Of a DNA stretch of 64,000 bases, positions 10,001 through 57,700 are shown one piece after another. The first letter of the stretch is position 1, and each line of letters starts with the position of its first letter. This DNA comes from a virus. A model generated the notes under the pieces. It was not told where the DNA came from. It searched no databases and saw nothing but the letters and a program-made list of their open reading frames with translations. Where the stretch lies: IMG/VR virus record IMGVR_UViG_3300028394_000038; one strand, written 5' to 3'. Position numbers and translations under genes: made by a program.

Positions 10001-10204
10001 ATGGCAACAGGTAAAGTAAAATGGTTTAATGAAACCAAAGGTTTTGGATTTATTACTCCAGACAACGGTGGTGAGGATTTATTTGCTCACTACTCAGCAA
10101 TACAGACTCCAGGCTTCAAAGTTCTGCAAGAAAATCAAGAAGTAACTTTTGATGTAGTGCAGGGCATGAAAGGCAAGCAGGCTAGTAATATTCACCCAGC
10201 GTAA
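10001..10204 (+). CDS. cspA: cold shock protein
   Basis: [21 protein letters not shown]1 and [11 protein letters not shown]2. Confidence 0.95.
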
Positions 10205-10220
10205 GCTGAGTGTAAAGAGA

Positions 10221-10551
10221 TAGTTGTAATCCCTTCAAAGTGAAGGCATTCTGGACGCGGGTTCGACTCCCGCCAGGTCCACCATAAAGTATATTCGGTT
10301 GGCACATAGCCAACAGAGACATTAGAAACGTGAGTATACTTCATAATGGGCCTGCCATGGTTTCGACAGGGTGAGATAATAGAGACGGCAACTCAGTAGG
10401 CGATGACTGTAAATCAAGCAAAACTCGTAAATGCAAACGCAAATACATTCGAGTACTTCACCGTAGAAGGCTTCACAGCTGAAAGCGGTCTAGTAGCAGC
10501 CTAAGAAACTGCAACTCCGGGGTAGGACAGGCCTTGTAAAATAACATAACC
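10221..10551 (+). ncRNA. ssrA: permuted two-piece tmRNA (outer ends approximate)
   Basis: T arm and CAGGTCC-ACCA ending at 10284 lie upstream of the GGGCCTG 5' strand at 10348 (G3.U70 pair); tag frame 10433..10504 ANANTFEYFTVEGFTAESGLVAA*. Confidence 0.9.
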
Positions 10552-10580
10552 AAGGGCGATTAATTTCGCCCTTTTTTCTT
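10552..10580 (+). terminator. intrinsic terminator
   Basis: AAGGGCGA/TCGCCCTT hairpin and T run. Confidence 0.75.
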
Positions 10581-10649
10581 GACACTCAGTGTTAAAGAAA
10601 ATAAAATCAAACACAGACTAAAACAGTCTTTTAAAAAAGGAAATAAAAT

Positions 10650-13059: not shown

Positions 13060-13314
13060 ATGACTAAAAAAGTTGTCCTAACATGTCGGACTTTAAAAGA
13101 ATTAAAAGGTTCTCCGGAAAGGGTAGCCGAGAGAACAGCACAGATTGCCAAGATGGTCGCTGAAGGGAAAACTGACGGCATATCAAATTTTGTTCCTCCT
13201 GCTACTGCCGAACTTACATTCATAGACCAAGCGGCAGCTGAAGAGTGGGTAACTTGGGGGACAGCAAATTTAACCAAGTACGGCATCACTCCTGTATCAT
13301 TAGAAATTCAATAA
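13060..13314 (+). CDS. hypothetical protein
   Basis: 84 aa ORF with AAGGA. Confidence 0.6.
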   Translation: MTKKVVLTCRTLKELKGSPERVAERTAQIAKMVAEGKTDGISNFVPPATAELTFIDQAAAEEWVTWGTANLTKYGITPVSLEIQ

Positions 13315-13346
13315 CCCTTCATTTTGACCGGATATCGCCAAAAGTC

Positions 13347-13375
13347 TTGACAACAAGACTAAATAAAACTATAAT
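13347..13375 (+). promoter_or_regulatory. consensus sigma70 promoter P1 of RNA island
   Basis: TTGACA-N17-TATAAT, perfect. Confidence 0.8.
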
Positions 13376-13408
13376 AGAGTCATGTCAACAAAGACCAGCG
13401 GCATCTAA

Positions 13409-13428
13409 CTGTTGTAGAAATACAACAA
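13409..13428. repeat. 20-nt palindromic repeat, copy 1
   Basis: CTGTTGTAGAAATACAACAA, identical at 23563..23582. Confidence 0.8.
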
Positions 13429-13447
13429 ACAAGATAACCAAAAGTGG

Positions 13448-13476
13448 TTGACACAAGTGCAGAAAGGCACTATAAT
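13448..13476 (+). promoter_or_regulatory. consensus sigma70 promoter P2 of RNA island
   Basis: TTGACA-N17-TATAAT, perfect. Confidence 0.85.
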
Positions 13477-13533
13477 TAACACATGAACTAGCAATTCCGC
13501 TAGTAAATAAAAAAGGTTTAAAAGAGAAACAAA

Positions 13534-13686
13534 ATGCAATCGTTTAACAGACAACAATGTACGAAACATTCGATAGCCCAGGTGGGAGGCTTTATGCCCT
13601 CTTATTGGCTGGCGATTAATAGTACAAGTCTATCAAATGATCGTTTACCAGAGATTACAAGGGTCCGGGAGGGCTGGGATGGTTAA
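13534..13686 (+). CDS. putative attenuator leader peptide (50 aa, all 20 amino acids)
   Basis: MQSFNRQQCTKHSIAQVGGFMPSYWLAINSTSLSNDRLPEITRVREGWDG*; lies between promoter and terminator. Confidence 0.65.
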   Translation: MQSFNRQQCTKHSIAQVGGFMPSYWLAINSTSLSNDRLPEITRVREGWDG

Positions 13687-13754
13687 GTAACACACTTAAT
13701 TACATTTCAAAACTTCAAGGACCCTAGGATTAAAACCCTGGGGTTTTTGTTTTT
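13660..13754 (+). terminator. antiterminator/terminator switch
   Basis: terminator ACCCTAGG(13721-28)/CCTGGGGT(13737-44) plus T run; competing AGGGTCC(13660-66)/GGACCCT(13719-25). Confidence 0.75.
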
Positions 13755-13767
13755 AAGGAAAGGAAAA

Positions 13768-13944
13768 ATGAAAGAGATAGATTATACAAAATTAAACGAA
13801 CGTATTGTTGAACAGGCTTATGAAGCCGCTCTTAGTAATACTCTTACTAAAGAACAGCTTCAAAAACTTATTCAAGATAAGTTTGAACGTGCTAGAGTGT
13901 ATCACGAAGCGTTAGCGAAAGCACCAACGTTTAGTGTAAACTAA
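13768..13944 (+). CDS. hypothetical protein
   Basis: ATG 13768 after AAGGAAAGGA; track ORF 13747..13944. Confidence 0.6.
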   Translation: MKEIDYTKLNERIVEQAYEAALSNTLTKEQLQKLIQDKFERARVYHEALAKAPTFSVN

Positions 13945-13952
13945 AGTACAAA

Positions 13953-14145
13953 GTGTGAACATACAGGAAACGAGGTCCTGGCTCTGCACTTAAAACATGG
14001 AGCGAACGGGCGGCCTATCGGATGAAACTCCTCTTCTGGAGCGAAAAATGGTAGCGTATTAAAGCACTCTCAGGTTCTGGGTAATCTCGGAGCAAGTGGG
14101 TTCATCCATGAAGAGTGCTTTAATACACACATTCTAAAGAGTGTG
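13953..14145 (+). ncRNA. multi-hairpin ncRNA candidate
   Basis: several short hairpins and a perfect 15-bp stem 14056-70/14112-26. Confidence 0.45.
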
Positions 14146-14150
14146 TTAAC

Positions 14151-14237
14151 GGAGGTTGTTCCCTATTGCCGGCTGTAACCCGGTAGGCATAATAAGTAGG
14201 GTGGCGCCAAGTGGTTCGATTCCATCAACCTCCACCA
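14151..14237 (+). tRNA. atypical tRNA-Tyr(GUA)-like RNA, no D arm
   Basis: 8-bp acceptor GGAGGTTG/CAACCTCC, GCCGG-CTGTAAC-CCGGT, TTCGA loop, ACCA. Confidence 0.65.
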
Positions 14238-14242
14238 AATTT

Positions 14243-14316
14243 CCTCTTGTAGTTAAATGGTATAACAATCGGCTGATAACCGGTCATTACAAGTTCGATT
14301 CTTGTCGAGAGGACCA
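14243..14316 (+). tRNA. tRNA-Ile(GAU)
   Basis: cloverleaf, loop CT GAT AA, CCA. Confidence 0.9.
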
Positions 14317-14320
14317 AGTT

Positions 14321-14378
14321 TAGGATACTAACAGCAAATCTTAATCAACTTTCAAATGGTGAAAAAGAATGTATCCTG
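14321..14378 (+). ncRNA. ACAGCAA-family RNA 1 (Glu UUC anticodon-like loop)
   Basis: TAGGATAC-ta-ACAGCAA...GTATCCTG. Confidence 0.75.
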
Positions 14379-14387
14379 TTTTATTAT

Positions 14388-14462
14388 ACTCCGGTCGTCT
14401 AGTGGCTAGGACGCCAGCCTTTCAAGTTGGAGAAGCGGGATCGAAACCCGTTCGGAGTACCA
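14388..14462 (+). tRNA. tRNA-Glu(UUC) copy 1
   Basis: loop CT TTC AA; T loop ATCGAAA; CCA. Confidence 0.88.
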
Positions 14463-14466
14463 ATAT

Positions 14467-14541
14467 GCCGTTGTAGCTCTCTGGGAGGGTAACTGATTGT
14501 CTATCAGATTTAGGCGAGTTCGATTCTCGTCAGCGGCGCCA
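14467..14541 (+). tRNA. tRNA-Asp(GUC) copy 1
   Basis: loop TT GTC TA; CCA. Confidence 0.85.
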
Positions 14542-14618
14542 GAGCAGATCCTGTTCGTGTAGCAAAGCCCCACACTGGTGGGTGGCTCAGGATGTAGAAA
14601 ATCACGAACCAAATCTAT

Positions 14619-14697
14619 TCCGTGAAATCCAAGCATGGTGCAAGGACCTGACTGTTAATCAGTGATTAGGTGAGTTCGATCCTCACACACGGAGCCA
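14619..14697 (+). tRNA. tRNA-Asn(GUU) copy 1
   Basis: loop CT GTT AA; enlarged D loop; CCA. Confidence 0.82.
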
Positions 14698-14766
14698 ATC
14701 AACAAACACATTTCCGACAGTAGGCGGAGGTGACAATGTCCATTCGGGTGAATGTGTTTTTTAATT

Positions 14767-14841
14767 GGGGGCAGTAGCGGGCTACGGTTCTCCCTTGCAA
14801 GGAGGATGTCTAGAAGGGTTCAACTCCCTCGGTCTCCACCA
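14767..14841 (+). tRNA. tRNA-Ala(UGC) copy 1, atypical D arm
   Basis: G3.U70, loop CT TGC AA, ACCA. Confidence 0.78.
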
Positions 14842-14847
14842 AATTAT

Positions 14848-14923
14848 CTCGCATTCGGTTAGCGGCTATGCCACCTGGTTTGGGGCCAGGAGTTCGAAGG
14901 TTCGAGTCCTTCATGCGAGACCA
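14848..14923 (+). tRNA. tRNA-Pro(UGG) copy 1
   Basis: loop TT TGG GG; CCA. Confidence 0.88.
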
Positions 14924-14929
14924 AGTTAA

Positions 14930-15003
14930 GCCCTATTAGTTAAATGGTAGAACACCTGTTTTGTAATCAGGGGATGGCAGTTCGATTCTGTCATGGGGCA
15001 CCA
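14930..15003 (+). tRNA. tRNA-Thr(UGU) copy 1
   Basis: loop TT TGT AA; CCA. Confidence 0.88.
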
Positions 15004-15006
15004 GTT

Positions 15007-15067
15007 TAGGATAGTAACAGCAAATTAAAAAATCTTTTCTTGAAAAAAAGCCAAAAATGCTATCCTG
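15007..15067 (+). ncRNA. ACAGCAA-family RNA 2 (Ser UGA anticodon stem-loop)
   Basis: TAGGATAG-ta-ACAGCAA...CTATCCTG; CTTTT-CTTGAAA-AAAAG. Confidence 0.78.
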
Positions 15068-15179
15068 TTTTATTTTAATGTTCAAAGGAGAACGACATGA
15101 AACGTGCTAAACGTTAGTGTCATCCTAGACCCCCGTATGGTCCTGGATGGCACGTAAAAGAAAATCAATTACGAATCAT

Positions 15180-15255
15180 CCACAGCTGGCGTTAACGGTA
15201 GCGTACTCGGCTCTTAACCGATGAGGTGTCAGTTCGAATCTGACGCTGTGGACCA
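15180..15255 (+). tRNA. tRNA-Lys(CUU)
   Basis: loop CT CTT AA; CCA. Confidence 0.88.
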
Positions 15256-15258
15256 TAT

Positions 15259-15333
15259 GGGGGTATAACTTAACGGCTAAAGTAGTAGGCTTTTAACCTA
15301 TTAATCAGAGTTCGATTCTCTGTGCCCCTACCA
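15259..15333 (+). tRNA. tRNA-Lys(UUU)
   Basis: loop CT TTT AA; CCA. Confidence 0.88.
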
Positions 15334-15419
15334 TATGAAAACATATTCGATACGGACATAGTCTGTGTGCGGCAAGATCACCTTCCTTTGACGAGAACGA
15401 TCCGAGTGTGTTTCCATAT

Positions 15420-15494
15420 GGTAATGTAGGACAATGGTAGTCTTCCTCCTTCATACGGAGAGTGTTACTGGTTCAAATCCAGTCATTACCACCA
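15420..15494 (+). tRNA. tRNA with CAU anticodon (elongator Met or Ile2)
   Basis: loop TT CAT AC; CCA. Confidence 0.85.
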
Positions 15495-15499
15495 AGTAT

Positions 15500-15573
15500 G
15501 TATCCCTAGTGTAATGGCAGCATTACAGTCTCCAAAACTGTCGGTCGGGGTTCGAGTCCCTGGGGGTACGCCA
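15500..15573 (+). tRNA. tRNA-Trp(CCA)
   Basis: loop CT CCA AA; CCA. Confidence 0.9.
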
Positions 15574-15577
15574 TTTT

Positions 15578-15641
15578 AAGGATGTTAACAGCAAACATTT
15601 ATACATTGAACTTTTAATTCAAACCGTAAAAATACATCCTG
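15578..15641 (+). ncRNA. ACAGCAA-family RNA 3 (Lys UUU anticodon stem-loop)
   Basis: AAGGATGT-ta-ACAGCAA...ACATCCTG; TTGAA-CTTTTAA-TTCAA. Confidence 0.78.
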
Positions 15642-15650
15642 CTTTTTTGT

Positions 15651-15724
15651 TCCCGGATAGTGTAGTGGTAACACAACAGACTTTGACTCTGCTATTGTAA
15701 GTTCGATTCTTACTCCGGGTGCCA
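15651..15724 (+). tRNA. tRNA-Gln(UUG)
   Basis: loop CT TTG AC; 1:72 mismatch; CCA. Confidence 0.88.
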
Positions 15725-15729
15725 TATAT

Positions 15730-15806
15730 CGGTCCTTAACTCAGCGGATTAGAGTGTCAGTCTTCGAAACTGAAGGTCGGGAGTTCGAATCTCTCAGGGC
15801 CGGCCA
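15730..15806 (+). tRNA. tRNA-Arg(UCG)
   Basis: loop CT TCG AA; CCA. Confidence 0.88.
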
Positions 15807-15812
15807 AAATTT

Positions 15813-15887
15813 ATCGCCATCGTATAATGGATAATACACTAGTTTGCGGAACTGGTAATTGTGGTTCGATTCCATATGGCGGTGCCA
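15813..15887 (+). tRNA. tRNA-Arg(GCG)
   Basis: loop TT GCG GA; CCA. Confidence 0.85.
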
Positions 15888-15893
15888 ATCAAT

Positions 15894-15969
15894 GGTGTCT
15901 TTAGTGTAGTGGCCTGCACCCTGCTCTGTGAAAGCGGTAGTACCGGATCGATACCGGTAAGGCACCCCA
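15894..15969 (+). tRNA. tRNA-His(GUG)
   Basis: G-1:C73, loop CT GTG AA; CCA. Confidence 0.88.
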
Positions 15970-15974
15970 AATAT

Positions 15975-16049
15975 AGTTCCTTAGCTCAGTGGTAGAGCAG
16001 TACGTTGACATCGTGAAGGTCACAAGTTCAAACCTTGTAGGAACTACCA
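15975..16049 (+). tRNA. tRNA-Val(GAC)
   Basis: loop TT GAC AT; CCA. Confidence 0.9.
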
Positions 16050-16054
16050 ATTTT

Positions 16055-16130
16055 GCTACTTTAGCTGATGTGGTCATAGCACCGGTTTGAAGCACCGAGG
16101 AACCAGGTTCGATCCCTGGAGGTAGCACCA
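16055..16130 (+). tRNA. tRNA-Phe(GAA)
   Basis: loop TT GAA GC; CCA. Confidence 0.88.
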
Positions 16131-16133
16131 AGT

Positions 16134-16349
16134 TTTGTAAGTGTCAGCAAGAGAACAACACGCTATATAGGGTAGTTCGAACTACCGAAATAGTAAAAGG
16201 CAAATGGGTTCAACTCCCACCCGCGGGGAACTGCGGAGGTCTGTAAAGGAGACTGTACTGGTTAAGTATCCCAAGTGACGTATCTTGACCCTGCCGGCTT
16301 TATATCAAGGGAGAATGGTTGCGATATGAGGGACGCAACTACTTACAAA
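16134..16349 (+). ncRNA. 216-nt closed-stem ncRNA candidate with CAGCAA and two T-loop-like hairpins
   Basis: TTTGTAAGT/ACTTACAAA; GGTAG-TTCGAA-CTACC; TGGG-TTCAACT-CCCA. Confidence 0.6.
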
Positions 16350-16357
16350 TTCAATAT

Positions 16358-16434
16358 GCCCTTGTACGCTAATTGGTAACGCGAATGGATTTAAAATCCG
16401 TTGTTTGTAGGTTCGAATCCAATCAAGGGTACCA
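16358..16434 (+). tRNA. tRNA-Leu(UAA), short variable loop
   Basis: loop TT TAA AA; CCA. Confidence 0.82.
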
Positions 16435-16435
16435 T

Positions 16436-16510
16436 ACCGCTTTCGTTCAATGGATAGGACATGATTCTTCTAAATTCATAATAGTGGTTCGATTCCACTA
16501 AGCGGTGCCA
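16436..16510 (+). tRNA. tRNA-Arg(UCU)
   Basis: loop CT TCT AA; CCA. Confidence 0.87.
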
Positions 16511-16514
16511 ACAG

Positions 16515-16588
16515 GCTCTTATAGTTTAATGGTAGAACACTCGCTTGGTATGCGAGCAATCGTAGTTCGATTCTACGTTAGAGCACCA
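16515..16588 (+). tRNA. tRNA-Thr(GGU)
   Basis: loop TT GGT AT; CCA. Confidence 0.88.
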
Positions 16589-16589
16589 T

Positions 16590-16667
16590 GCCCCCTTAGC
16601 CCAATTGGTATGAGGCGTCTCTCTCAAAAGGAGAATCGTGTCGGTTCGAGTCCGACAGGGGGTACCA
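16590..16667 (+). tRNA. tRNA-Leu(CAA), short variable loop
   Basis: TCTCT-CT CAA AA-GGAGA; CCA. Confidence 0.82.
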
Positions 16668-16688
16668 ATATAATAAGTAAATGACAAT

Positions 16689-16778
16689 GGAAATGTGGCA
16701 GAGTCCGGTTTATTGCAACAGTCTTGAAAACTGTCGGCCTGAAAAGGTCCGTGAGTTCGAATCTCACCGTTTCCGCCA
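16689..16778 (+). tRNA. tRNA-Ser(UGA)
   Basis: loop CT TGA AA; long V arm; GCCA. Confidence 0.92.
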
Positions 16779-16794
16779 ATAATAAAAAAATGTG

Positions 16795-16823
16795 TTGACA
16801 ACACGATAAAGTGATGTTATAAT
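16795..16823 (+). promoter_or_regulatory. consensus sigma70 promoter, second tRNA block
   Basis: TTGACA-N17-TATAAT with extended -10 TG. Confidence 0.85.
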
Positions 16824-21592: not shown

Positions 21593-21621
21593 TAGACACA
21601 TAGCAGTAAAGCTGTTATAAT
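21593..21621 (+). promoter_or_regulatory. sigma70-type promoter for ACAGCAA RNAs 5-7 and DUF2828 gene
   Basis: TAGACA-N17-TATAAT with extended -10 TG. Confidence 0.7.
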
Positions 21622-21657
21622 AGACACATAGCAAGCAGAGATGCTTGTAGCAAGTTT

Positions 21658-21823
21658 TAGGATCGGTACAGCAACATTCATATACTATGGACTGTTAGAC
21701 ACTGTGGTAGTTAGTGGAGCAGAGTGCGTAAAACCACCGAGCATTGAAGGTAACTATTGAAACAAGACTAACGAGCACAGAGTGATGGCCTGTGTAAAAT
21801 AAAAGCAGTCAACAACGATCCTG
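21658..21823 (+). ncRNA. ACAGCAA-family RNA 5
   Basis: TAGGATCG-gt-ACAGCAA...CGATCCTG. Confidence 0.78.
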
Positions 21824-21831
21824 TTTAGTCA

Positions 21832-22065
21832 TAGGATGACTACAGCAATTTAAAACTCTGAACTAACTGCTATTGAAAGCGGTCGCAGGACACAGTAGAA
21901 ATACTGTTCTAGAAATAGACGCTCAAGGAATAGACGACAGAATGGAAAGACATTCTATGATGTTTGTACAGACACAACACAAACTAGTCAACATGAATGT
22001 TGATAGGGTCTGGGTGCCATGATTGGCCAGACCAGAATACTAATCAAATTGGCACGATCATCCTG
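21832..22065 (+). ncRNA. ACAGCAA-family RNA 6
   Basis: TAGGATGA-ct-ACAGCAA...TCATCCTG; multiple internal hairpins. Confidence 0.78.
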
Positions 22066-22074
22066 TTAGAATTT

Positions 22075-22132
22075 TAGAATGTTAACAGCAAACTTTAAAT
22101 TTCAACTATATCTGAAAATAAAACACATTCTG
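22075..22132 (+). ncRNA. ACAGCAA-family RNA 7, abutting RBS of DUF2828 gene
   Basis: TAGAATGT-ta-ACAGCAA...ACATTCTG (compensatory change). Confidence 0.75.
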
Positions 22133-22145
22133 TAAAGGTAAAAAA

Positions 22146-23561
22146 ATGAACGCATTTGTAAACGCAATCGCAAATCAAGAAGCCCGTACTGCCAATGGCA
22201 TGAAGGCTCGTGCATCAACAGCCAAGAAGACTGTTGACCTGTTCTACAAGATCGGTGCAAGCCGTGGTAAGAACATTGTAGGCGACTTCACTGCCGCTTA
22301 TGTAGAAAATCAAGACGTAGCACTACGCATCGCACAATGGGCACGTGATGTCCGTGGTGGTGCAGGTGAACGTCAACTTTTCCGTGACATTCTTGTTCAC
22401 TTGGAAAAGACTGACCCAGACGCCGCTTTGGCTTTGCTTCGCAAGGTTCCAGAAGTTGGTCGTTGGGATGACATCTTTGTCTTCACCAACCCTGACCTAA
22501 AGTCAGCCGCTTATACCATGTTGGGCGATGCCCTACGTGCTAACAACGGTTTGGCCGCAAAGTGGACTCCTCGTAAGGGTCAAATTGCCGCTGAAGTTCG
22601 TGCCTTCTTTGGCATGACTCCAAAGCAATACCGTAAGAGCCTTGTGGCACTTACAAAGGTTGTTGAAACCCAAATGTGTGCAGGAGATTGGGATAACATC
22701 AACTTCAGTCACGTTCCTTCTGTAGCGGCTCGCCAATACAAGAAGGCATTCAACCGTCACACACCTGCATTTGCAGAGTATGTTGCCAAGTTGGTAAGTG
22801 GAGACAAGACTGTTAAGGTTAACGCCAACGCAATCTTCCCACATGACGTGCTGAAGGGTGTGATCACTGCATACGGTCCTTCCAAGTTGGACAAGACAGA
22901 AACTGACCATGTGATCGCACAATGGGACAGCTTGCCTAACTACGTGGGTGATGCCAGCATCATGCCAATCGTAGACGTTAGCGGTTCTATGTCTTGCCCA
23001 GCAGGAAAGAACACTGGCGTAACTTGTATGGACGTTTCAATCAGCTTGGGCTTGTACCTAGCAGACAAGAACAAGGGCGTGTTCAAGGACACATTCTTGA
23101 CTTTCTCAGACAAGCCACAACTTGTTACTCTAAAGGGTAACATTGTTGACAAGGTTGCTCAAATGAGCAAGAGTGATTGGAACATGAGCACTAACTTGCA
23201 TGCCGCTATGGACAAGATCCTAAGCGTTGCAGTTAAGGGTTCAGTACCAGCTAGCGACATGCCAGCCATGTTGCTGATCTTGTCAGACATGCAGTTCAAC
23301 CAATGCGCCCGTTACGACGACAGCGCAATGCAAATGATCGAACGCAAGTTCGAAGATGCAGGTTATACTGTGCCACAGATTGTTTTCTGGAACCTAAACA
23401 GTTCAGACAACGTGCCTGTTGCCGCTGACAAGAGTGGTGCCGCATTGGTAAGTGGATTTAGCCCAAGTATAATGACTAGCTTGCTAGCCGCTGACTTGGA
23501 TCAGTTCACTCCAGAAGGCATCATGCTTAAGACTGTAATGAGTGATCGTTACGCTCTCTAA
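22146..23561 (+). CDS. DUF2828-type protein with C-terminal VWA domain (Ro60/TROVE-like)
   Basis: RTANG, RDVRGGAGER, GRWDD, AAKWTPR; MIDAS DVSGSM, ILSDMQF, IVFWNL, SGFSP. Confidence 0.82.
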   Translation: MNAFVNAIANQEARTANGMKARASTAKKTVDLFYKIGASRGKNIVGDFTAAYVENQDVALRIAQWARDVRGGAGERQLFRDILVHLEKTDPDAALALLRKVPEVGRWDDIFVFTNPDLKSAAYTMLGDALRANNGLAAKWTPRKGQIAAEVRAFFGMTPKQYRKSLVALTKVVETQMCAGDWDNINFSHVPSVAARQYKKAFNRHTPAFAEYVAKLVSGDKTVKVNANAIFPHDVLKGVITAYGPSKLDKTETDHVIAQWDSLPNYVGDASIMPIVDVSGSMSCPAGKNTGVTCMDVSISLGLYLADKNKGVFKDTFLTFSDKPQLVTLKGNIVDKVAQMSKSDWNMSTNLHAAMDKILSVAVKGSVPASDMPAMLLILSDMQFNQCARYDDSAMQMIERKFEDAGYTVPQIVFWNLNSSDNVPVAADKSGAALVSGFSPSIMTSLLAADLDQFTPEGIMLKTVMSDRYAL

Positions 23562-40112: not shown

Positions 40113-43100
40113 ATGTCTGTGATTAGTGCTGACGCATTTAGAAGAATTGTTTTAGTTGATAACCTTGGTACGACCCAACCCGTTTTACGAGCAGATGACC
40201 GTAATGACGTATTAACAATCCGTGCAGGCACTGGCATTTCAATTCAGAAAGATGAAGGAGATGTAAACGCCGGATTTACAATCTATAATACAGGTGAGCC
40301 GGGACCTACTAGTATTGACGATATACTAGAAATTCCAACAATTGGAGAACGTCCACAACCAGCGGGCGTAAGCTGGAAGCCAATGGAGCTTGGTAAGTTA
40401 ACTGTTCAAGATTACTTGCCCGATAACCTAACAAAAACAACAAAGATGTTCTACACCGGACACGGTGTACAGGCTCCTACTAACAGTAGTCTCTCTTTAA
40501 CCGTTGCTGGAACAGGTACAGTTATTGTAGACGGCACTTCAGCATTGCGTTTGCCAGTTGGCGACATTGCTAGTCGTCCGGGAACTACAATTGGCACAGT
40601 ACAAGCAGGTCAAATACGTTTCAATTCCGAGATACCAAGATTTGAAGGCTATGATGGTCGAGGTTGGAACACGCTAGGCGGTGTAAGTAGTATTGATGGC
40701 GGTACAACTATTGCACCGGATCCTACATTACCCATACTAAACTTTAATGCTAACGGCTACCTAGTAGCCACAATGAGTAGCTTAAACACAAAAATCTTTA
40801 GTCCGGGACTTGTAATCCCAACTGGAACTACTGCTGAACGTCCGCCTGCTATTGTTGGACAGATTCGTTTCAATACGCAAAACACTCAGTTTGAAGGATA
40901 CAATGGTAGTGGTTGGTCAAGTCTAGGTGGGGTTCGAGACATTGATGGCAACACTTACATTGTTCCGGAACTAGGCCCAGGTACAAATGAAAATACCCTA
41001 TACTTTGTAACCAATGCCAATCTAGCTCTTACTCTAGACGGCAGTAGACTGTCTTTACAAAATGGTCGTTCTCTAATGTTTAGAGAAGGCATTGCCAGCG
41101 GCAATCAAACTGCAACTATTGCACCTCCAACAAATATTACATCAAGCTACACTCTTAAATTACCAACTAGTCTTGGATCAGCTGGTAGTGTATTAGGAGT
41201 TGATGGGTCAGGACAACTAGAATTTGTCAATGCCGATTCGAGTGCGGGTAGTAAGATCAACGTATCTGAACTATTTGGTGACGATAACAATGACGGGTTT
41301 AGTCGCCCTGTTAGAACACTAAAACGTGCATTGCAAATAGCATCAGGTTATGTTTATAGCCCAACATTTATCTATGAAGAGGAAGTATGTCGACGTGACG
41401 CTGGACTTATTATTGACAGTTTGGGTTGGGACCTAGTAACAGGATCCAACTGGAGATCTTTAAAGAGCGGACTTACTTATTTTAACGCCACAGCATTGCC
41501 TGTTATAACAACTCAACGTCCTCAAACAATACAGGCTGTTTCTTTCTTAAAACGAAAAGTATTAGACCTAGTAACAAGTGAACCAACAGTTACTACTACT
41601 CTTACAAGTTTATCAAATGAGATTATTGATATATTGACTAATGGCGTTGGTGCGGCAAATGCTGTATCAATGCCCGCACTAGCAGGTACACCTAGTGGTG
41701 TTGAAAACGCTAAGAACTTACTGTTATCTAACGCCAACTTCTTAGTAGCAGAAACTATTGCATGGATCAATTATCAAGCGGCAAACAATATTGCTCCATT
41801 TGACAAGAGCATTAGTTATGATGAGACTAAGTGTCGTAGAGATACTGGATTAATTTTAGATGCTGTAGGTTTTGACCTAGCACTAGGAACAAATTATAAT
41901 GCTGTAACTACTGGACTAGCATATCAACGATATTCTTATACAACACTACCATCACAAAAAACAGTAACCCTTTCTGCTATACAATTTGCAAAAACTAATA
42001 CTCTAGCACTTGCAGGAGTTAGTGCTGATGGAACTGCTACTACTAGAGCGGGTGCGGCATTTAATGAAATTATTGACATAATAACCAATGGCATAGTTCA
42101 AACAGCAACGGCCGCGGACGCATTAATATTCCCAACACCGACTGGAGCAAGTTCAAATAAAACTAATGCTAAAGATCAACTAATAGCCAATAAAGATTTC
42201 TTAAAAGCAGAAGTTATTGCTTGGTTAAATTTAAACTACCCGTCTGTTGGATTTGACCCTGCTCTATGCAGTCGAGATATGGGATACATTATTGATGCCC
42301 TATGTTATGATGTGTTGTATGGCGGCGATAGTGCAAGCATTCAAGTTGCTCAAACATATTTTACAGGCAGTGGCGCACAAGTATTACCATTGTTTCAAAG
42401 AGCCGCAACTGTGGCTGCATTTAATAGACTATCAGAAATTGCTCAACAGGTTATTATAAAAGACGAAGTAGTACCAACTGCTGGTAATACTGTCAGTCAA
42501 GATATTATTAACCCTGCAGGCACTACAACTGAATCGAATATAGTCTTTACACTGATCTCATATATTACTAGTTCTATTGCTAGTAATACAACTGCTGGAT
42601 TACCAAGTGTAACTTATCCATCAGTTACTTGGTCAGATGCCGGCCTACAAACTGCAAAGTCTGCTATTGCATCTGCTAGATCAACTATTATTAATGATAC
42701 TATTATTAATATTAACGCTAGCAACCCGTTTACCTATGACAGTGCCAAGTGTGCTAGGGATACTGCCTTTATTGTCAACTCAGTCGCATACGATTTAATC
42801 TACGGTGGTAACAGTCAAAGTCGAGATGCTGGCTTAAAATATTACAGTAATGTAACTGGTCTAACTCTAATTGGATCTCAAAATGCTCAAACTGCGGCGG
42901 CAATAGAAAGACTTAGAGCAGTTTCAATTCAAGTTGCACAAAATATTTCGATTGTTAAAACATCAGGTAATGCACAAAATCAAGTATCGGGTTCTGCAGG
43001 CAGTAGCGGTGCGGCTGCAATTATTTCAGCAAGGCTATCAGAAATTATATCAGTTGTTAGTGCTGGAACAAGTTATGCCCCAACATTGGTAGATCCAACA

Positions 43101-46100
43101 GTTGCAATAGATCCAGCATTAGGTCTCATACAAACAAAATTAGACAATGCTAAAGATCGTATTGCTGATAACGTAGTTGCGTTTACTAGCAAATATAAAC
43201 CAAATGGCAAGAAGATTGTTGTACAAGTTGCGGCCGGTAACTATGTTGAAGACAATCCAGTTATCATTCCAGACAATACAAGCGTACTAGGCGCAAGTCT
43301 TCGTGCCTGTGACATTCGTCCGTTAAATGCTAACCAAGACATGTTCCGTTTACGTAACGGTGCATACTTTGGTGAGTTTACTTTCCGAGATGCAGTTGAT
43401 GCGAGTGGCGTGCCAACATTCACTTTTGACTACGCTACTTCGTTTGATGATGCTACTGACATTTACACTAGTCGTCTTGGTTATACTAATATGCCTATTA
43501 GTAAACCTATTATTACTGTATCTCCATATATTCAAAACGTTTCCATCTTAAGTTTCTTAGGTGGTAACGGCGCAAAGGTTGACGGTAACCTAGTTGAAAC
43601 TCCTAACATTCCGTTGATTAGAGAAACTGCTGAATTCCCATTAAGTGGTCCAGCACCTGAACAAGGTAAGTCATTTGTTGCTAACGCATTTACCACATTG
43701 AGCTTTGGCGGTACTGGCTGGCGTATTATTAACGATGCCTATGCTCAGATTGTGTCATGCTTCCAGATTTTCATGTTGAACGGTTCGTATGCTCAGTCAG
43801 GCGGATATCTATCTGTTACTAACTCTGCTACTAACTTTGGTATCTATGCGCTTCGTGCATCTGGTTACAGCCCAAATGCATTTGCCTTTGACAAAGGTTA
43901 TATTGCATCAACTGGAACTAGCAACAGTAAACAGACTCTTACTACTCTAGGATTTGGTCGTGCGCCAACACAAGATTATGTTTTAAGATTTAGAAGCCCC
44001 GACTATAAGGTTGCCTATGACTTATTGTTAGCCAGCAAACTTGCAATACAGAACGCAACTATAACTTGGATTAATTTAACATATCCAAGTTTAACATATA
44101 ACAATGCAACTTGTTTTAGAGACGTTGGCCTGATCATCGATGCTGTTGCTTATGATACCTTCACTGGTGGTAACAGCAAGAGCGTAGAAGCCGCTACAAG
44201 TTACTATAAAGGCTCTACATCTAGTCAAATAGTTATAACTGGACAACTAACTGAAACTATTGCGGCAATTAATTATGCTAGAAGTCTAGCGTTGACTGCT
44301 GTTTCTAATAGCGGACTAGGCACATATGTTGGTAGTAAGTTTGATATTATTACCAACGGCCTTGCAGACCCAGCGGGAGTTCCTGTATCAGTTGGCTACG
44401 GTAATATTGGTGATATTACCAACAACTACAAACCGGCGGCAGTTAGTGTATCATTTGATGCGGCAGTTAATATAAATCCCGCCCTTGACACTATTACCAT
44501 TAACGCACACGGATTCACAAACGGTCAAGCAATTGTTTATCACGCAAATGACAATCCAGAAATTCCAGGATTAAACAACGAGCAAACTTACTATGTCAGT
44601 TATGTTGACCTTGATACCATTCGATTGACATTTGACGAAGGCGGAACTGTTTCTGTAGACATTAGAGCCACAGGTGTTGGTACACATTTCTTCTTTAAAA
44701 ATATTCAAGAGTTCTTTGTTGATGAAATACTTGAAAGTCATAACACCTATCAAGAACTAACTCTACAAGCTGGCTCATATAACTTTGTGCCAGGTAGTGA
44801 AATTACTGGCGTAACTGGCACTTCTAGTAACAATGCATTTGTGTATAGTTATGATCCAGTTAGCTATAAACTAGTTGTTAGTCTAAACAAAGTTACTGTT
44901 GGTGCAAGTATTATTCGAAATGCCTTTGCGGCCAACAGTACTATTAATTCAGATAACGGTGCACCTGCTACAACAAATATTGTAGTAAGTGATGTACTTG
45001 CTATCAATACATTATACTCTGCTAGATTTAGCGTACAGGGCACAACTGGAAACGGTCTACTAACTAACCTAGGTAATCTTCCAAATAAACAAATTTGGCT
45101 ACATCGTCCAAGTATTGTTAACAGTTCTGGACACACTTGGGAATATGCTGGATCGGGTGTTGACTACAATGCCCTACCACAAAACGGTGGACAAAGTATT
45201 TTCAAATATGAACAGTACAGTGATTTGCCAGGTCGAGTTTACTCTTCAGGTACTAACGAACTAGGTGACTTTAAAGTTGGTGACTTCATTAAGGCTGAAA
45301 ACAAAACTGGTAATGTTAGCTTTACCAACAAGGTATCAGTTGCACAGTTAGATGCACTACGTCTAGCGGTGGGTAATATTGTTATTGACTTTATCAGTGA
45401 TGACGTTGACCTAGGTGATAATGAACCAGGTGGCGCAAGTAACAGTCGTCTAACAACACAGTTAGCCATTCGTACATTCTTATCAAACAGACTAGGCGGA
45501 TTCATTGACAAGGCTGTAAGTACCAATGCTGTACCGGGTGCGGTTATTCAGTTGAATAGCTCAGGTCAGATTAATCCAGACTTGTTGCCTGCGGTCCGTG
45601 CCTTCAACTCAGCTAAGAGCAAGGGCTTCTATAGCAGACTAAGTCTAGTTGAAGAAGTACCTGCCTACGATTTCCTAAACGGTGACATTGTAACTGAAGA
45701 ATATGCCACAGTACAGTTGACATTAAGTGCGGCAATTTCAGCACCTGTTGGTTCACTAGTTGTTCAAGCAACTACAGGCGCCAGTGGTTACCTAATTGGC
45801 GATGTACTTGCTGAAACAGTTATCACAGTTGCCAGTGTGGGCGCATCTTTTAGTGCGGCATTTAATACTGTAGATAATTTAACAGTAGCCGGTGATGCTA
45901 CACCTTCTACAGGCAACGGAGTCGTAAAGCCAAACTTGGTAGGTACTGTGGCTAGTAACGTGCCTGCAAACTTTGTATTGTCAAATGCCAATGAAGGGCA
46001 ATATTTAAATCTACGTGCAGATCAAAGTTACAGCTTTACCAACGGCACAATTGTTACCAGTGCTAATGATAACGTACAAGGTACTGTTACATCTACAAGA

Positions 46101-49100
46101 TTTGGAGTATTAGATACTGTAGACAACGGAAGCATTACTCCAGGAACATTGTATACTCCACTATCTGGATCAGTTACTTACTCTTACGTTGCACTAACTA
46201 ATATTTCAGGAAGTGGTACTGGTGGTATTGCAGATATTACTGTAACCAATGGTGCTGTTAGCAGTGTTGACTTACGTAGAGGCGGTACCGGTTATGCTGT
46301 AGGAGATGTTCTATCAGCGGCTAGCGGTACCATTGGCGGAACAGGTAGTGGCTTCAGAATCCCAGTAACTGGTATCGAACAGCGTGTATACCTTAGCTTG
46401 CTAGGTGGTGAAAGATTTACAGCTACACTAGCAAGTCCAAACTTTATTGCTGATAATAATGCTCCAGTAAAAGCAATAACTGCTACCGGTACATCTACAA
46501 AAACATTTAGTGCTAATTCAATTGGTGGTAATGTAAACTATGTTACCAGTCGAATCACTATTACCGGCCACACATATGCAGACGGCGATCCAGTAAAATA
46601 TGTCAGCAGTCCAAACACTGCTATTGATCCGTTGGTCAATGCCGAAGTCTATTATGTAAATGTTTATGATGCTAATACCATTGAGCTGTACGAAGACTAT
46701 GCGTTGATACAAAAAGTTGTATTTACAAGTTCAAGTACTGGTAATCATACTCTAACAATCTTTAATGCCAACGTAATTGATAACTCATTCTATTATGCGG
46801 CACATGGATTAACTACAGGTGACCCATTAAGACTAACAGGATCAAGTTTACCATTAGTCGGCGGCTCTGCTATTGTTACTGGTACATTCTATTTTGCCGG
46901 TTCAATAACTGCAAACTCATTTACTATCCATGCATCAAGAAGTGAAGCATTAGCAAGTATTAACGGTCTTGTAACTAATAAAATTGTGTTCACTACTACA
47001 GGTAGTGGTACACTGACATTTACCAAACAGAACGTACAGGTATTTGGAACTGTAAACACTAGTTCTACAAACAAAGACAACTGGAGCTCATTGAGTGCTA
47101 CCACTATTGATGCTTCAAGCATTACCGGTGGCGTTATCTCAACAAGTCGTTTAGCAGGTACTGGTAGTGCTAATGATACTACATTTCTACGTGGTGATAG
47201 TTCATGGCGCACAGCAGTTCAAAGTATTAGAGAAGTCAACACACCGTTGACATTTACTGGTTCTTATAATACCGTTGGTAGTAACAATTATTACTATGGC
47301 GATGTACAATTAGACATTGAAAAGGTTGACAGCAACAGTGGAGACGACAACTACACTAATCTAGGTGTTGCTAAATTCCGTAAGACACAATTTGCTGTTG
47401 GAACTAGTGTTGCGGCCGGCGAAGTTTATATTAAAGACGGCGTAGTTGATGCAGGTACCTTAGACAGTTTAGACAGCGCATACTTTTTAAATCCTGCTAA
47501 CCTAACTAGTAACGTGCCTGTTACACGTGGCGGAACTAATATTAGTTCGTATGCTGTGGGTGATTTATTGTATGCTAGTGCTACTAGTATTTTAAGTAAG
47601 GTAGCGATTGGGCCAGCTAATACCATATTAACCAGTGACGGCACTAAGCCTGCTTGGAGATCTAGTCTAACAGTTGACGGTGCATTGACTGTTGGCAGTC
47701 CGGCAGAACAAGCTCTTATTGTTACAACAGGCGGAGCTAACATTGGCGGCAACTTGTGGGTTGGTAAAAATGGGTACATAACAGGCGATTTGAATGTTAC
47801 TGGTAATGTAAACATTAAAGGTTCAATACTAACTATTAATTCAACTACAGTTAACGTTGACGATAAGAATATTGAATTAGGCAGTGTATCTACACTATCA
47901 GATTTATCGGGTACTATTAGTGGAAACATAGTAGCAGGATTAATAGACACGTCCGGATTAACTAGCGGAATGAGATTAGTTAAAACTACTGGTGCCGGGG
48001 CATTTGGTGGTATTACTGTTATCAATACTATTGTTAACCCGACAACAATTACTGTAACCCCAACAACTGCAAACACAGATGGTACTATCACGTTTGATGT
48101 ATTAACCGCAACTAATGCCACAGCAGACGGTGGCGGCATTACACTAAAAGGTACAACTGACAAAACATTCAATTGGGTCAACTCAACTAGCGCATGGACC
48201 TCAAGTGAGCACATGAACCTTGCCGCTGGTAAAGAATATCGAATTGGTGGTATAACTGTACTAACAAGTGCAAGAGTATTAGGCAAGCTACCAGGCGGAA
48301 CTACTACTGGTGACTTGGTTGATATTGACAGCACACAAACATTAACTAATAAAACCCTAACTAATCCTATAATTAGTGGAACAACTACCAGCATTACTAA
48401 CATTGGCACATTAGCAATAAGAGATGCCAGTGCGGCTTTTGATGTAACACTTGCGGCCAACAGCTCAACTGCGCTAACAGCAGGTCGTACATTAACCCTT
48501 GACATGGTCAATGCGGCAAGAACTATTAAGCTAGGCGGCAATTTAACTCTAGCCAATAACTTTACAACTGTTGGCAATGCTATAACATTAACAGTAAGTG
48601 GTGCAACTAACGTTACAGTACCAACTACAGGTACATTGGCTACCTTAGACGGTACAGAAACATTTACTAACAAGACACTAACAAGTCCAGTGATTGGTAC
48701 TATTGTTAATACAGGTACATTGACACTGCCAACAACTACAGATACTATTGTTGGTCGTGCTACTACTGATACACTATCTAACAAGACCTTGACATTACCT
48801 AAGATTAATGACACAAGTTCAGACCATACATATAATTTTGCAGTCAGCGAGTTAACGGCTAATAGAACTATAACCTTGCCACTATTAACAGGTAATGATA
48901 CGTTTGCGTTTATTGGTCAAACTCAGACATTTACTAACAAAACATTTACTGATGCTAGTACTTACTTCCAAGACGAAGCTGATAATCTTAAAAAATTACA
49001 GTTTCAACTAAGCGGAATTACTAGCGGAGTTACTCGTACATTAACTATTAATGATGTTAGCGGAACTATTGTAACAACAGGCGACACTGGTTCTATTACC

Positions 49101-54640: not shown

Positions 54641-54710
54641 ATAGTGTATTTACATTAAGGTTATAAAACGGAAAGATAAATATCATATACAAGACTTATT
54701 GGAGCATTCA

Positions 54711-57700
54711 ATGGCACGTAAAATAGTAGACATCGGCGTAGAAGGTAATGACGGAACTGGTGATAGTATCCGCGAAGGTTTTAGAAAAACCAACGAAAAC
54801 TTTAAAGAAATATACGCTGTATTTGGGCAAGAAGGTACATTAGCATTTTTAAACTTAGGCGATGTAGAAGCCGGACAGCTTAAGAATTATTCTGCCATAG
54901 CTAATCAATTCCCTGTTGTTAACAATCAAGGGTCTGGAATTAAGTTCAAGCCCTTAGTAGGTGCTGCCGGTTTAACTATTACGTATCCAGATGATCCTGC
55001 CGATCCCAACTATAACAAAATTGTTCTAACACAGCAACGAGCTGTAGCAGAATTAGGCTCTGCCGATGCGGCTGGTAAATTTGGCAATTCTGTTGATGGA
55101 CAAGGATTTGTCTTTGGAAATATTGCAGATCCTACACAAGCTAATGTATTAAATTGGAATACTGCTTTTGATCGTCACGGTCAAACTGTTATTGGGGCTG
55201 AAAAGTTTCCGGTTCCGTTAGGATTTGCAGACAATAGGTACATTAATAAAGGTACAATACCGGGCGAAGTTGCTGATGCAATGGTAGGTTATCTTTCTGT
55301 TCCAGCAGGCGCAACGGGTGATCAAGTGCCGCAGGCCGCTGAAACTGTTCTAAAAGCCGGCGCTACAATGACCGGTAAACTATTCCTAAGTGATCATCCG
55401 GGTGATCTAGCAGGCGCAGGTAATCCAATTGGACTCGATGATAAGCAAGCGGCTACCAAATATTATGTAGATACAACTGCATATTCAAGTAAAGTTAATT
55501 TGTATGTTAGTACCAGCGGCGATGACTCACAACGCAAAACTCCAGTGGGGAAAGAAGGCCGAGCATTTGCTTATGCCTATGCTAGTCTAGTTGCGGCTTG
55601 TTTAAAAGCTGAACAGCTTATTGACGAAAGTCCATGGGAAACTGGCCCATATCGTCAGTTAATTGCTTACGGTGGAGCAAAATACTATTCAGAAATTACG
55701 CCAGGCGGTATTATTATTGGTGGCGGGTTAAACGGAACTACCCGTATTAAATTCACTAACGACAGCGGTAGCCCAGTTGATCAAGGTATTGCAAACAATA
55801 GAGATATTATTCCAGGCAAACTAGTAGTTGGTCGTAATAGCGGAGCAAGAGGTTTTATTGTAAAATATGGAACAATTGATAATACTGACTATGTTGACCT
55901 ACGAGATGTAACTGGATCATTCTCAGTTGGTGAAAACTTATTCTTTGACCAAGCTGTTAAGCGTTTAGAAATTTCTATCTTTATTGAGTCAGGTAATTAT
56001 TATGAAGATTATCCAATTCGTATTCCGCGTAACTGTTCTATTCTAGGTGATGAATTTAGACGTACAGTTATCCGCCCTGCGGATCGAATAAGTAAAAGCC
56101 CATGGGCTGGTACTTGGTTCTATCGTGATCTAGAATTTGATAACCTAGCTATTGCAGAAACAAATTGGGGATATCATTATCTATCAGACCCAACTAACAA
56201 GGCATCAACTCCAAAAAATAACAAAGACTTAGACGTATTCTTATGTAATGATGCTACTATTATTCGTCAGATCAGTTGTCAAGGTCACGGTGGATTCATG
56301 ATGGTGCTTGACCCTAACGGTCAAATTTTAACCAAGTCACCTTACTGTCAACAGTCAGGTTGCTTCTCCGGGTCATTAAACAAACAAGCATTCCGCGGTG
56401 GTCAATATGTTGACGGGCAAGCAGGAAGTATGCCTGTAACTTCAGTTAGTACTAATTCAGATAAAACTGAAATTACAGTTACTGATGCATTCCGTATACC
56501 GCAAACTCCTACTGCATTCTTTGTTAAAGGTAAACGCTATAAGATTGATACATTTACTGATAACGGTTTAGGATATCGAGGTGCTAGAGAATTACTAATA
56601 GCAAACAAAGAATTTATTGTTGCAGAAACTATTGCCTATATCAATGATGTCATTACTCCAACTTTTACATATGATGCTGTTAAATTTAGTCAAGCTGTAG
56701 GAAATATTATCAATGCAGTTGCATGGGACGTAGTATTTGATAGTAATATTCAATCTATTTTAATAGCCGAAGAATATTATGTAAGAACCAAATACACAAC
56801 GTTCCCTTCAGAAAAAACACAAACACTAGCCGCTCTTAATTATGTAAAAGATTCTCTAGTAGCACTACTATCAACTAATGCAACAGCGGCAGCCCGTGCT
56901 AGTGCAAAAATGGATATAATATTACAAATCCTTACTAGCGGTGTCAATGACCGTAATATTTTAGATGCAAGCTCATGGACTTATCTTGGCACCACTATTA
57001 CTGTAACAAAATCTGGTGGTCATGGATTGGGTGCAGGCTGGTCAGTTAAAATTGTAGATGCTACTGCAACAACCAATGCCCCTAACGGTATATTTAATGT
57101 TGCATCTATTGTTGATGCTAATACATTTACATATACTGTTACTAATGCTCCGACTGGTACTGCTGGTGGTAACATTAGATTTACCAGCTCACCAATTCCA
57201 ATTAGATCAATTCCTAACCCGCCTGTAGATCCACAGGCATTGCCTGCTACTACATTAGGCATTCAAAATAGTCTTGCATTATTAATTGCTAATAGAGAAT
57301 TAATTAAAGCTGAATACATTGCCTACATTCAAACTTATTATTCCGATTTCTTATTTGGAACTATCGGGGTTGCTGGTTATATTAGAGATGCTGACAGAAT
57401 CGTCAACGCAGTAATATATGATTCTATTTACGGTGGCACTAGTCAAAGTGTGTTAGTGTCTAACAACTTCTTTGATGCTGAAGGCAAATCAACAATATCC
57501 ACTGAAGTTACACAAATATATAATGCATTAGAATGGATTAGAGATGTTGCCAAACAAGTAGTCACTAATACAGAAATTACCGGTTTGTTACAAGTATCTA
57601 TTAGACAAGCTAGAGGAACTGCAGGTACTTTAGAAATTGCTACACTTGTAGAAGATAATTTTAATTCTGTTGTTACTGCTATTAGATTTGGTGCTGACAC

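Follow-up and report, generated by a model that had tools for sequence, protein, structure and literature searches.

The window, that is the whole stretch of 64,000 nucleotides analysed here (IMG/VR virus record IMGVR_UViG_3300028394_000038, from a giant phage), contains a tRNA gene array headed by tandem promoters and a short leader region with a 50-codon open reading frame (ORF), a long hairpin (H3) and an intrinsic terminator (T). The promoters, the leader with its folds, the terminator, the small ORF behind it and the first tRNA block all lie on the plus strand. Promoter P2 (13448..13476) is composed of TTGACA and TATAAT boxes separated by 17 nt, with 12/12 matches to the sigma-70 consensus, and its transcript is predicted from the sequence to start near 13483. 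A perfect promoter ahead of the ORF had been noted in an initial inspection of the bare letters (hereafter the sequence-only reading); a second perfect one, P1 (TTGACA-17-TATAAT, likewise 12/12), is located at 13347..13375. A small hairpin (13410-13427) lies between P1 and P2 in the window. The promoter unit is repeated in tandem, with two copies in the window and three in many relatives, and is reminiscent of stable-RNA operon promoters.

The minimum-free-energy fold of the leader RNA starts with a stem-loop (CUAGC/GCUAG, 13488..13503). In the relatives the sequence of this stem differs while its complementarity is kept (e.g. GACAGC/GCUGUC and ACGCUGC/GUAGCGU). A Shine-Dalgarno-like AAGAGA (13522..13527), read from the sequence, lies within an A-rich linker; its GAG (13524-13526) stands 7 nt before the ATG, a ribosome binding site as weak as first judged, and the GAGAAA block at this position is conserved in most relatives. 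The leader ORF (13534..13686) comprises 50 codons and a TAA stop. It encodes all 20 amino acids with 37 distinct codons, ATA, AGA, AGG, CGG, CTA and TTA among them, in agreement with the first count. The stop codon (13684-13686) is part of the upper 5' arm of H3. The body of the ORF forms a long hairpin of its own (13536..13643; -32 kcal/mol and z -4.1 in the window, mean z -2.8 in 40 folds from the leader family), which, judging from the folding models, could pause the polymerase and synchronise it with a ribosome. The whole leader RNA is far more stable than its shuffled versions (z -4.15).

Hairpin H3 (13660..13725) consists of the base AGGGUCC/GGACCCU, followed by GGAG/CUUC and a variable upper stem. 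Its 5' arm holds the last eight codons of the leader plus the stop; AGGGTCC (13660-13666) faces GGACCCT (13719-13725) and the inner stems pair in the manner initially described. The whole leader has H3, and not T, in its minimum-free-energy fold, and that of the local segment (-26.9 kcal/mol) includes H3 too. Terminator T (13721..13754; about -12.8 kcal/mol) pairs ACCCUAGG (13721-13728) with CCUGGGGU (13737-13744) in a G+C-rich stem of 8 bp with an 8-nt loop, and continues with the U-tract UUUUUGUUUUU up to 13754. Because H3 and T both use ACCC(U), the two folds are mutually exclusive, and the proposal that the long hairpin sequesters the 5' arm of the terminator is borne out. A likeness of the GGUCCGG motif to Y RNA or SRP RNA was considered and dropped, given that it has no Rfam match and that its pairing partner is 50 nt away.

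Directly behind T lies an ORF of 58 amino acids (13768..13944) with a good ribosome binding site and without a promoter of its own. It has a weak PHROG match of unknown function and is present in some relatives only. The stretch between this ORF and the tRNAs (13945-14150) is structured, non-coding and recognisable in most relatives; it contains a long stem, UAUUAAAGC...GCUUUAAUA, and then a hairpin, ACACACAUUC...GAGUGUGU, and could be a Y-RNA-like or a processing element. An enlarged second hairpin with a consensus promoter just before the first tRNA is seen in 16 of 65 relatives. It is followed by a tRNA-like RNA (14151-14237) that has a T arm, an acceptor end bearing CCA and an anticodon loop with GUA (Tyr) but lacks a normal D arm; this RNA was not called by ARAGORN, has a weak Rfam match to tRNA-Sec (23 bits) and is conserved in many relatives. 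Together with 22 further tRNAs it makes up the first tRNA block (14151..16778), and no strong promoter lies between T and this block. The tRNA genes announced behind the leader are thus confirmed, with 22 ARAGORN tRNAs and the Tyr-like RNA at 14151 preceding the promoter at 16795. Overall, 36 ARAGORN tRNAs follow the leader on the same strand. The array extends as far as 21561, and additional promoters lie at 16795, 17224, 21344 and 21593. The last of these begins a segment (21593-22145) with about 500 nt of non-coding, RNA-like sequence and repeated ACAGCAA motifs, located before a Ro60/TROVE-like (DUF2828) gene at the far end of the array (22146-23561), whose matches in many large phages show 42-47% identity.

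Relatives of the element were collected from IMG/VR by two pattern searches anchored on the terminator and on the base of H3. These identified 165 loci, the longest contig measuring 383 kb; 121 distinct elements among them come with 300 nt of DNA upstream. One match of the first search (L013) was unrelated and was excluded. Searches with the neighbouring genes recovered the same contigs. A DNA search with positions 13300-14250 against 50,697 phage records gave no match, and the nearest virus record (G001) is without a match to the leader region. The covariance models of Rfam 15 gave no match over 13483-13760 (E up to 1). The leader peptide has no family match in Pfam or PHROG, and these searches with the neighbours returned nothing informative. 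Two or three near-consensus promoters, spaced by about 85-100 nt, precede the leader in nearly all relatives, and in an alignment of 72 of them the -10 box of P2 is conserved as TATAAT or TACAAT. The link to tRNA genes is constant: all 142 loci that extend at least 700 nt downstream have a tRNA on the same strand within 1.6 kb (median distance 441 nt), and tRNAs for 17-20 amino acids are encoded by the arrays in the DNA covered. A strong promoter between T and the first tRNA is absent from 49 of 65 relatives and present in the other 16. Such own promoters, along with those of the later tRNA blocks in the window, mean that control of the array by the leader would be partial.

The frame from ATG to stop is open in 118 of the 121 distinct elements (42-50 codons) despite indels, whereas the other two frames hold on average 2.4 and 4.3 stops over the same span. 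Length differences among the relatives are in-frame, the ATG is conserved in at least 90% of the 72 aligned relatives, and the peptides fall into 17 clusters at less than 50% identity. An open frame maintained through peptide divergence had been predicted, and so had a conserved position of the stop, which is found 24-35 nt before GGACCC in all 118 elements (TAA in 114, TAG in 4). A frame-shifting indel of 7 nt within H3 is offset by a new in-frame TAA 4 nt upstream, which leaves the stop at the apex of the hairpin. In divergent relatives the ATG follows the -10 box by only 6-10 nt, giving a leaderless or near-leaderless mRNA. Elements L019, L011, L024 and L038/L084 belong to this divergent set; they lack a 5' untranslated region and still have the content of all 20 (or 19) amino acids and the same switch.

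Selection on the peptide sequence itself appears weak. Column entropies at codon positions 1, 2 and 3 are 1.01, 0.93 and 1.03, which amounts to no codon periodicity. Among close relatives, 186, 179 and 253 changes fall on these positions, a weak three-periodicity, and the synonymous share of changes is 0.37 vs 0.23 expected; our own arithmetic on these changes gives a rough dN/dS near 0.5. This pattern suits a frame that would need to be read and whose product would matter little. The modest synonymous excess leaves room for a functional peptide, and it would also agree with a stand-alone, highly expressed small gene or a dual-function small RNA. In that case the transcript of about 270 nt (13483-13754), the 50-residue peptide or both would be the product, T would be a leaky terminator, H3 would serve as a stabilising or protein-binding structure, and read-through into the tRNA genes would be incidental. 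The unusually structured leader (z -4.15 as a whole, mean z -2.8 for the ORF body) fits such a product; a peptide without a Pfam or PHROG family speaks against it.

The amino-acid content of the leader peptides is under selection. Of 114 distinct peptides (42-50 residues), 90 (79%) have the complete set of 20 amino acids, and the average peptide has 19.7 types. Random peptides sampled from the pooled leader composition attain 20 types in 3.4% and average 17.3 types. In windows of 49-50 codons from the phage's own genes, 29.3 ± 2.6 distinct codons and 17.1 ± 1.4 amino-acid types were counted; 37 codons are reached by 0.5% of these windows and 20 types by 2.6%. When the 17 clusters (<50% identity) are considered, 8 show 20 types, 7 show 19 and 2 show 18 (P about 8e-10 for at least 15 of 17 clusters with at least 19 types). 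Most peptides contain exactly one copy of Cys (98 of 114), Trp (95), His (88) and Tyr (86). Single copies of Cys are distributed over 18 alignment columns, those of His over 11, of Lys over 10 and of Tyr over 9, and since these residues shift columns, selection acts on their presence and not on their position. A small gene or RNA acting on its own leaves both the full set of amino acids in 79% of divergent peptides and the shifting single residues unexplained.

The diversity of content that had been predicted for the relatives is found in them, with amino-acid diversity far above the null. Codon diversity follows a different rule. The leaders contain on average 35.7 distinct codons, close to the 34.5 of uniform synonymous choice and above the 29.3 of the phage genes, so that a 'pan-codon' selection beyond the amino-acid content is unsupported. 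With synonymous codon use approximately uniform, 'pan-amino-acid' is a better label than the 'pan-codon' of the sequence-only reading, of which the amino-acid coverage stands (90/114 with all 20) and the codon diversity beyond uniform synonymous choice does not. To be decoded, the window leader needs 28 of the 31 anticodon species of the phage, compared with 21.2 ± 2.5 for the gene windows, 0.4% of which reach 28.

A chance ORF in a non-coding leader and terminator region would require little explanation in the window by itself, as a frame of 50 codons in AT-rich DNA is not very rare alone and the codon count of this one leader is within the range of uniform codon use. The comparative data refute this reading and leave it with hardly any probability: the frame is kept in 118 of 121 elements through many indels with the other frames closed, and the amino-acid content across the 17 clusters has a P of about 1e-9.

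The two exclusive folds are conserved as well. H3 is part of the best local fold in 58 of 61 distinct variants, with a mean energy of -22.2 kcal/mol, compared with -13.4 kcal/mol after shuffling of the inner part and -12.3 kcal/mol for T alone. In the free leader RNA, H3 holds the common ACCC in 116 of 118 relatives. The upper stem of H3 varies widely among relatives yet remains paired, while its base, GGGUCC/GGACCC followed by GGAG/CUYC, is nearly invariant and for this reason offers no covariation support for its pairing. T occurs with compensatory variants (UAGG/CCUA, UGGA/UCCA, UGG/CCA, CAGG/CCUG and an extended UAGUUA/UAACUG), and in each case a T run comes next. The covarying stems expected earlier are thus seen in the upper stem of H3 and in T, but not in the base pairs that H3 shares with T. 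RNAalifold recovered only the terminator from a MAFFT alignment of 72 leaders and nothing from a sub-alignment; H3 was missed because its hypervariable upper stem is misaligned, and the sequences were therefore folded singly.

The invariance of the H3 base could also mean a binding site for a protein. This leads to a switch independent of translation, in which a phage or host protein (e.g. the Ro60-like protein encoded at 22146-23561; such binding is hypothetical) or an RNA would bind the invariant GGGUCC/GGACCC-GGAG/CUYC stem and choose between H3 and T, the ORF being secondary. A lower stem that is fixed under an upper stem free to vary would fit such binding, and the same array includes the TROVE/Ro60-like gene and several structured RNAs. 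The invariance is, however, also explained by one segment that has to fit two partners, and a switch operated by protein only has no need of a selected open frame, a conserved ATG, a fixed stop position and a content of all 20 amino acids. We regard a factor switch of this kind as improbable. Near-invariance of the H3 base and the terminator region, as for a binding site, would be compatible with the small gene or RNA product introduced above too, as would the fact that 16 of 65 relatives have a promoter of their own ahead of the first tRNA; in addition, RNAs derived from attenuators reportedly can act in trans (rnTrpL, PMC6614838). An H3 that is about 10 kcal/mol more stable than T and overlaps its 5' arm would nevertheless cripple a plain terminator, and the constant position ahead of a tRNA array would be left without explanation. 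A stand-alone gene or RNA is accordingly an unlikely reading of the element, if a little less so than the factor switch.

How a translating ribosome would affect the choice between H3 and T was modelled for 118 leaders by deleting the RNA as far as 12 nt beyond the first base of the codon in the A site. With the stop codon in the A site, T formed in 113 of 118 leaders, which upholds, within this model, the earlier proposal that a finishing ribosome melts the antiterminator. T was likewise obtained in 117-118 of 118 with the A site up to two codons before the H3-arm codon. Three codons before the arm the outcome was intermediate (103/118), and at four or more codons before the arm H3 formed in 103-117 of 118. 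The claim that a stall at any codon gives read-through holds in this model for positions at least four codons before the arm, and fails for the last approximately 10 codons (from two before the arm through the stop), at which termination is predicted. A masked fold that permits pairs across the ribosome gave T in only 37 of 118 leaders and was set aside, since a helix of 6 bp could not physically close over a bound ribosome. Within the predicted sensing part of the leader, which extends up to about four codons before the H3 arm, the peptides contain a mean of 18.75 amino-acid types and all 20 in 22 of 114; this reduced coverage is mainly due to the usual Glu codon three codons before the arm, at the boundary.

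Comparison of the relatives together with the folding models argues that the element is probably a ribosome-mediated (leader-peptide) transcription attenuator heading the phage tRNA array. In such an attenuator, the strong tandem promoters would fire constantly, and the fate of each transcript would depend on the partner of ACCC(U). Held by H3, this segment would block T, and the polymerase would continue into the 58-aa ORF, the structured RNAs and the tRNA genes; paired with CCUGGGGU, it would form T and the transcript would end at 13754. The free RNA is predicted to prefer H3. We infer that the ORF is translated and that its ribosome is coupled to RNA polymerase. A ribosome following closely behind the polymerase and positioned at the last codons or the TAA would cover the 5' arm of H3, allow T to form and stop transcription. 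A ribosome delayed within roughly the first 36 codons, or one that never loaded, would leave H3 intact and permit read-through. As the free RNA is the read-through form, termination would need tight coupling of transcription and translation in the host.

With one or a few codons per amino acid in the leader, too little of any charged tRNA would increase transcription of the tRNA genes. Starvation, phage codon use that out-competes the host tRNAs and tRNA-targeting defence nucleases may be causes of such a shortage, and the response would amount to a homeostat of the entire decoding pool. The leader could thus be understood as a test sentence in which every amino acid is used once, which gauges the pool of charged tRNAs and switches on the phage tRNAs and structured RNAs. 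We consider it slightly better than an even chance that this understanding is correct and, jointly with it, that the switch occurs widely across a large family of giant phages that are uncultured.

Leader-peptide attenuators of amino-acid operons, such as trpL, hisL, pheL, leuL, thrL and the multivalent ilv leader, share several traits with the phage element: a short leader ORF (translated in those operons), an antiterminator that overlaps the 5' arm of the terminator, and a stop placed such that a finishing ribosome blocks the antiterminator. Their leaders carry runs of the one to three amino acids whose biosynthesis they control, whereas the phage leader contains all 20 amino acids and is followed by tRNA products. 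In the trp/his type, pairing of segments 1:2 terminates an untranslated leader; the free RNA of the phage adopts the read-through fold instead. With its free RNA in the antiterminator form and no run of any codon in the leader, the phage element falls outside the trp/his type. T-box riboswitches bind one specific uncharged tRNA directly and without translation. Like the phage leader, they sense the decoding supply through the choice between terminator and antiterminator, but neither the T-box nor another Rfam family matched the leader (13483-13760, E up to 1).

The closest known system, and one studied by experiment, is the uORF transcription attenuator of whiB7 / wblC in Actinobacteria. There, efficient translation of the uORF leads to an intrinsic terminator, and stalling leads to an antiterminator and read-through (bioRxiv 10.1101/2023.06.02.543512). 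Expression of whiB7 is activated by the loss of many amino-acid biosynthesis genes, tRNAs and synthetases, and the uORF's make-up in amino acids sets which starvations are sensed; the uORF of M. smegmatis includes every amino acid except Cys (bioRxiv 10.1101/2023.06.02.543512). Common to both systems is a long uORF of diverse composition that chooses between terminator and antiterminator (in the phage by prediction). The two are not related in sequence, and whiB7 attenuation controls a transcription factor, whereas the phage leader precedes tRNA genes. The whiB7 uORF consists of 25-40% Ala and often misses several amino acids, whereas the phage leaders are selected for about one of each. The phage element is furthermore placed on sigma-70 consensus promoters, unlike whiB7. 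A second comparable case is the toiL uORF of E. coli topAI-yjhQ, at which ribosomes stall at various positions under many translation stresses and remodel the downstream RNA (PMC12121999). It is a multipurpose stalling uORF, as proposed for the phage leader, but acts by occlusion of a ribosome binding site and Rho-dependent termination, compared with the intrinsic terminator of the phage; it is unlinked to tRNA genes, and an all-amino-acid composition has not been reported for it.

In the literature we found no paper on attenuation of tRNA genes or on an all-amino-acid leader, and no description of regulated expression of phage tRNA arrays. In recent work, phage tRNAs are reported to rescue infection from tRNA-cleaving defences (PMC11555353, PMC11464382). 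If the proposed attenuation is real, the shortage sensed could include the action of host defence nucleases, and the element would represent a counter-defence coupled to a sensor and a homeostat of viral tRNA. No earlier attenuator would have tRNA itself as its output, and the leader would be a compact and portable sensor of the overall capacity for decoding. Among leader peptides it is, moreover, the clearest case to date of selection on amino-acid content and not on sequence. Under the same premise, a leader deprived of its only Cys or Trp codon should no longer respond to that particular shortage, and for whiB7 an effect of codon removal on the response to one shortage has been shown (bioRxiv 10.1101/2023.06.02.543512).

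Further features were observed around the array. A permuted (two-piece) tmRNA with a tag of 23 residues is located 3 kb upstream of the leader (10192-10595; ARAGORN, and Rfam tmRNA_permuted with 139 bits), and a tmRNA also lies upstream of the leader in the loci of 9 relatives. The ACAGCAA motif occurs 31 times in the window vs 15 expected. Two giant ORFs lie on the plus strand, at 40113-50798 (3561 aa) and 54699-63998 (>3100 aa).
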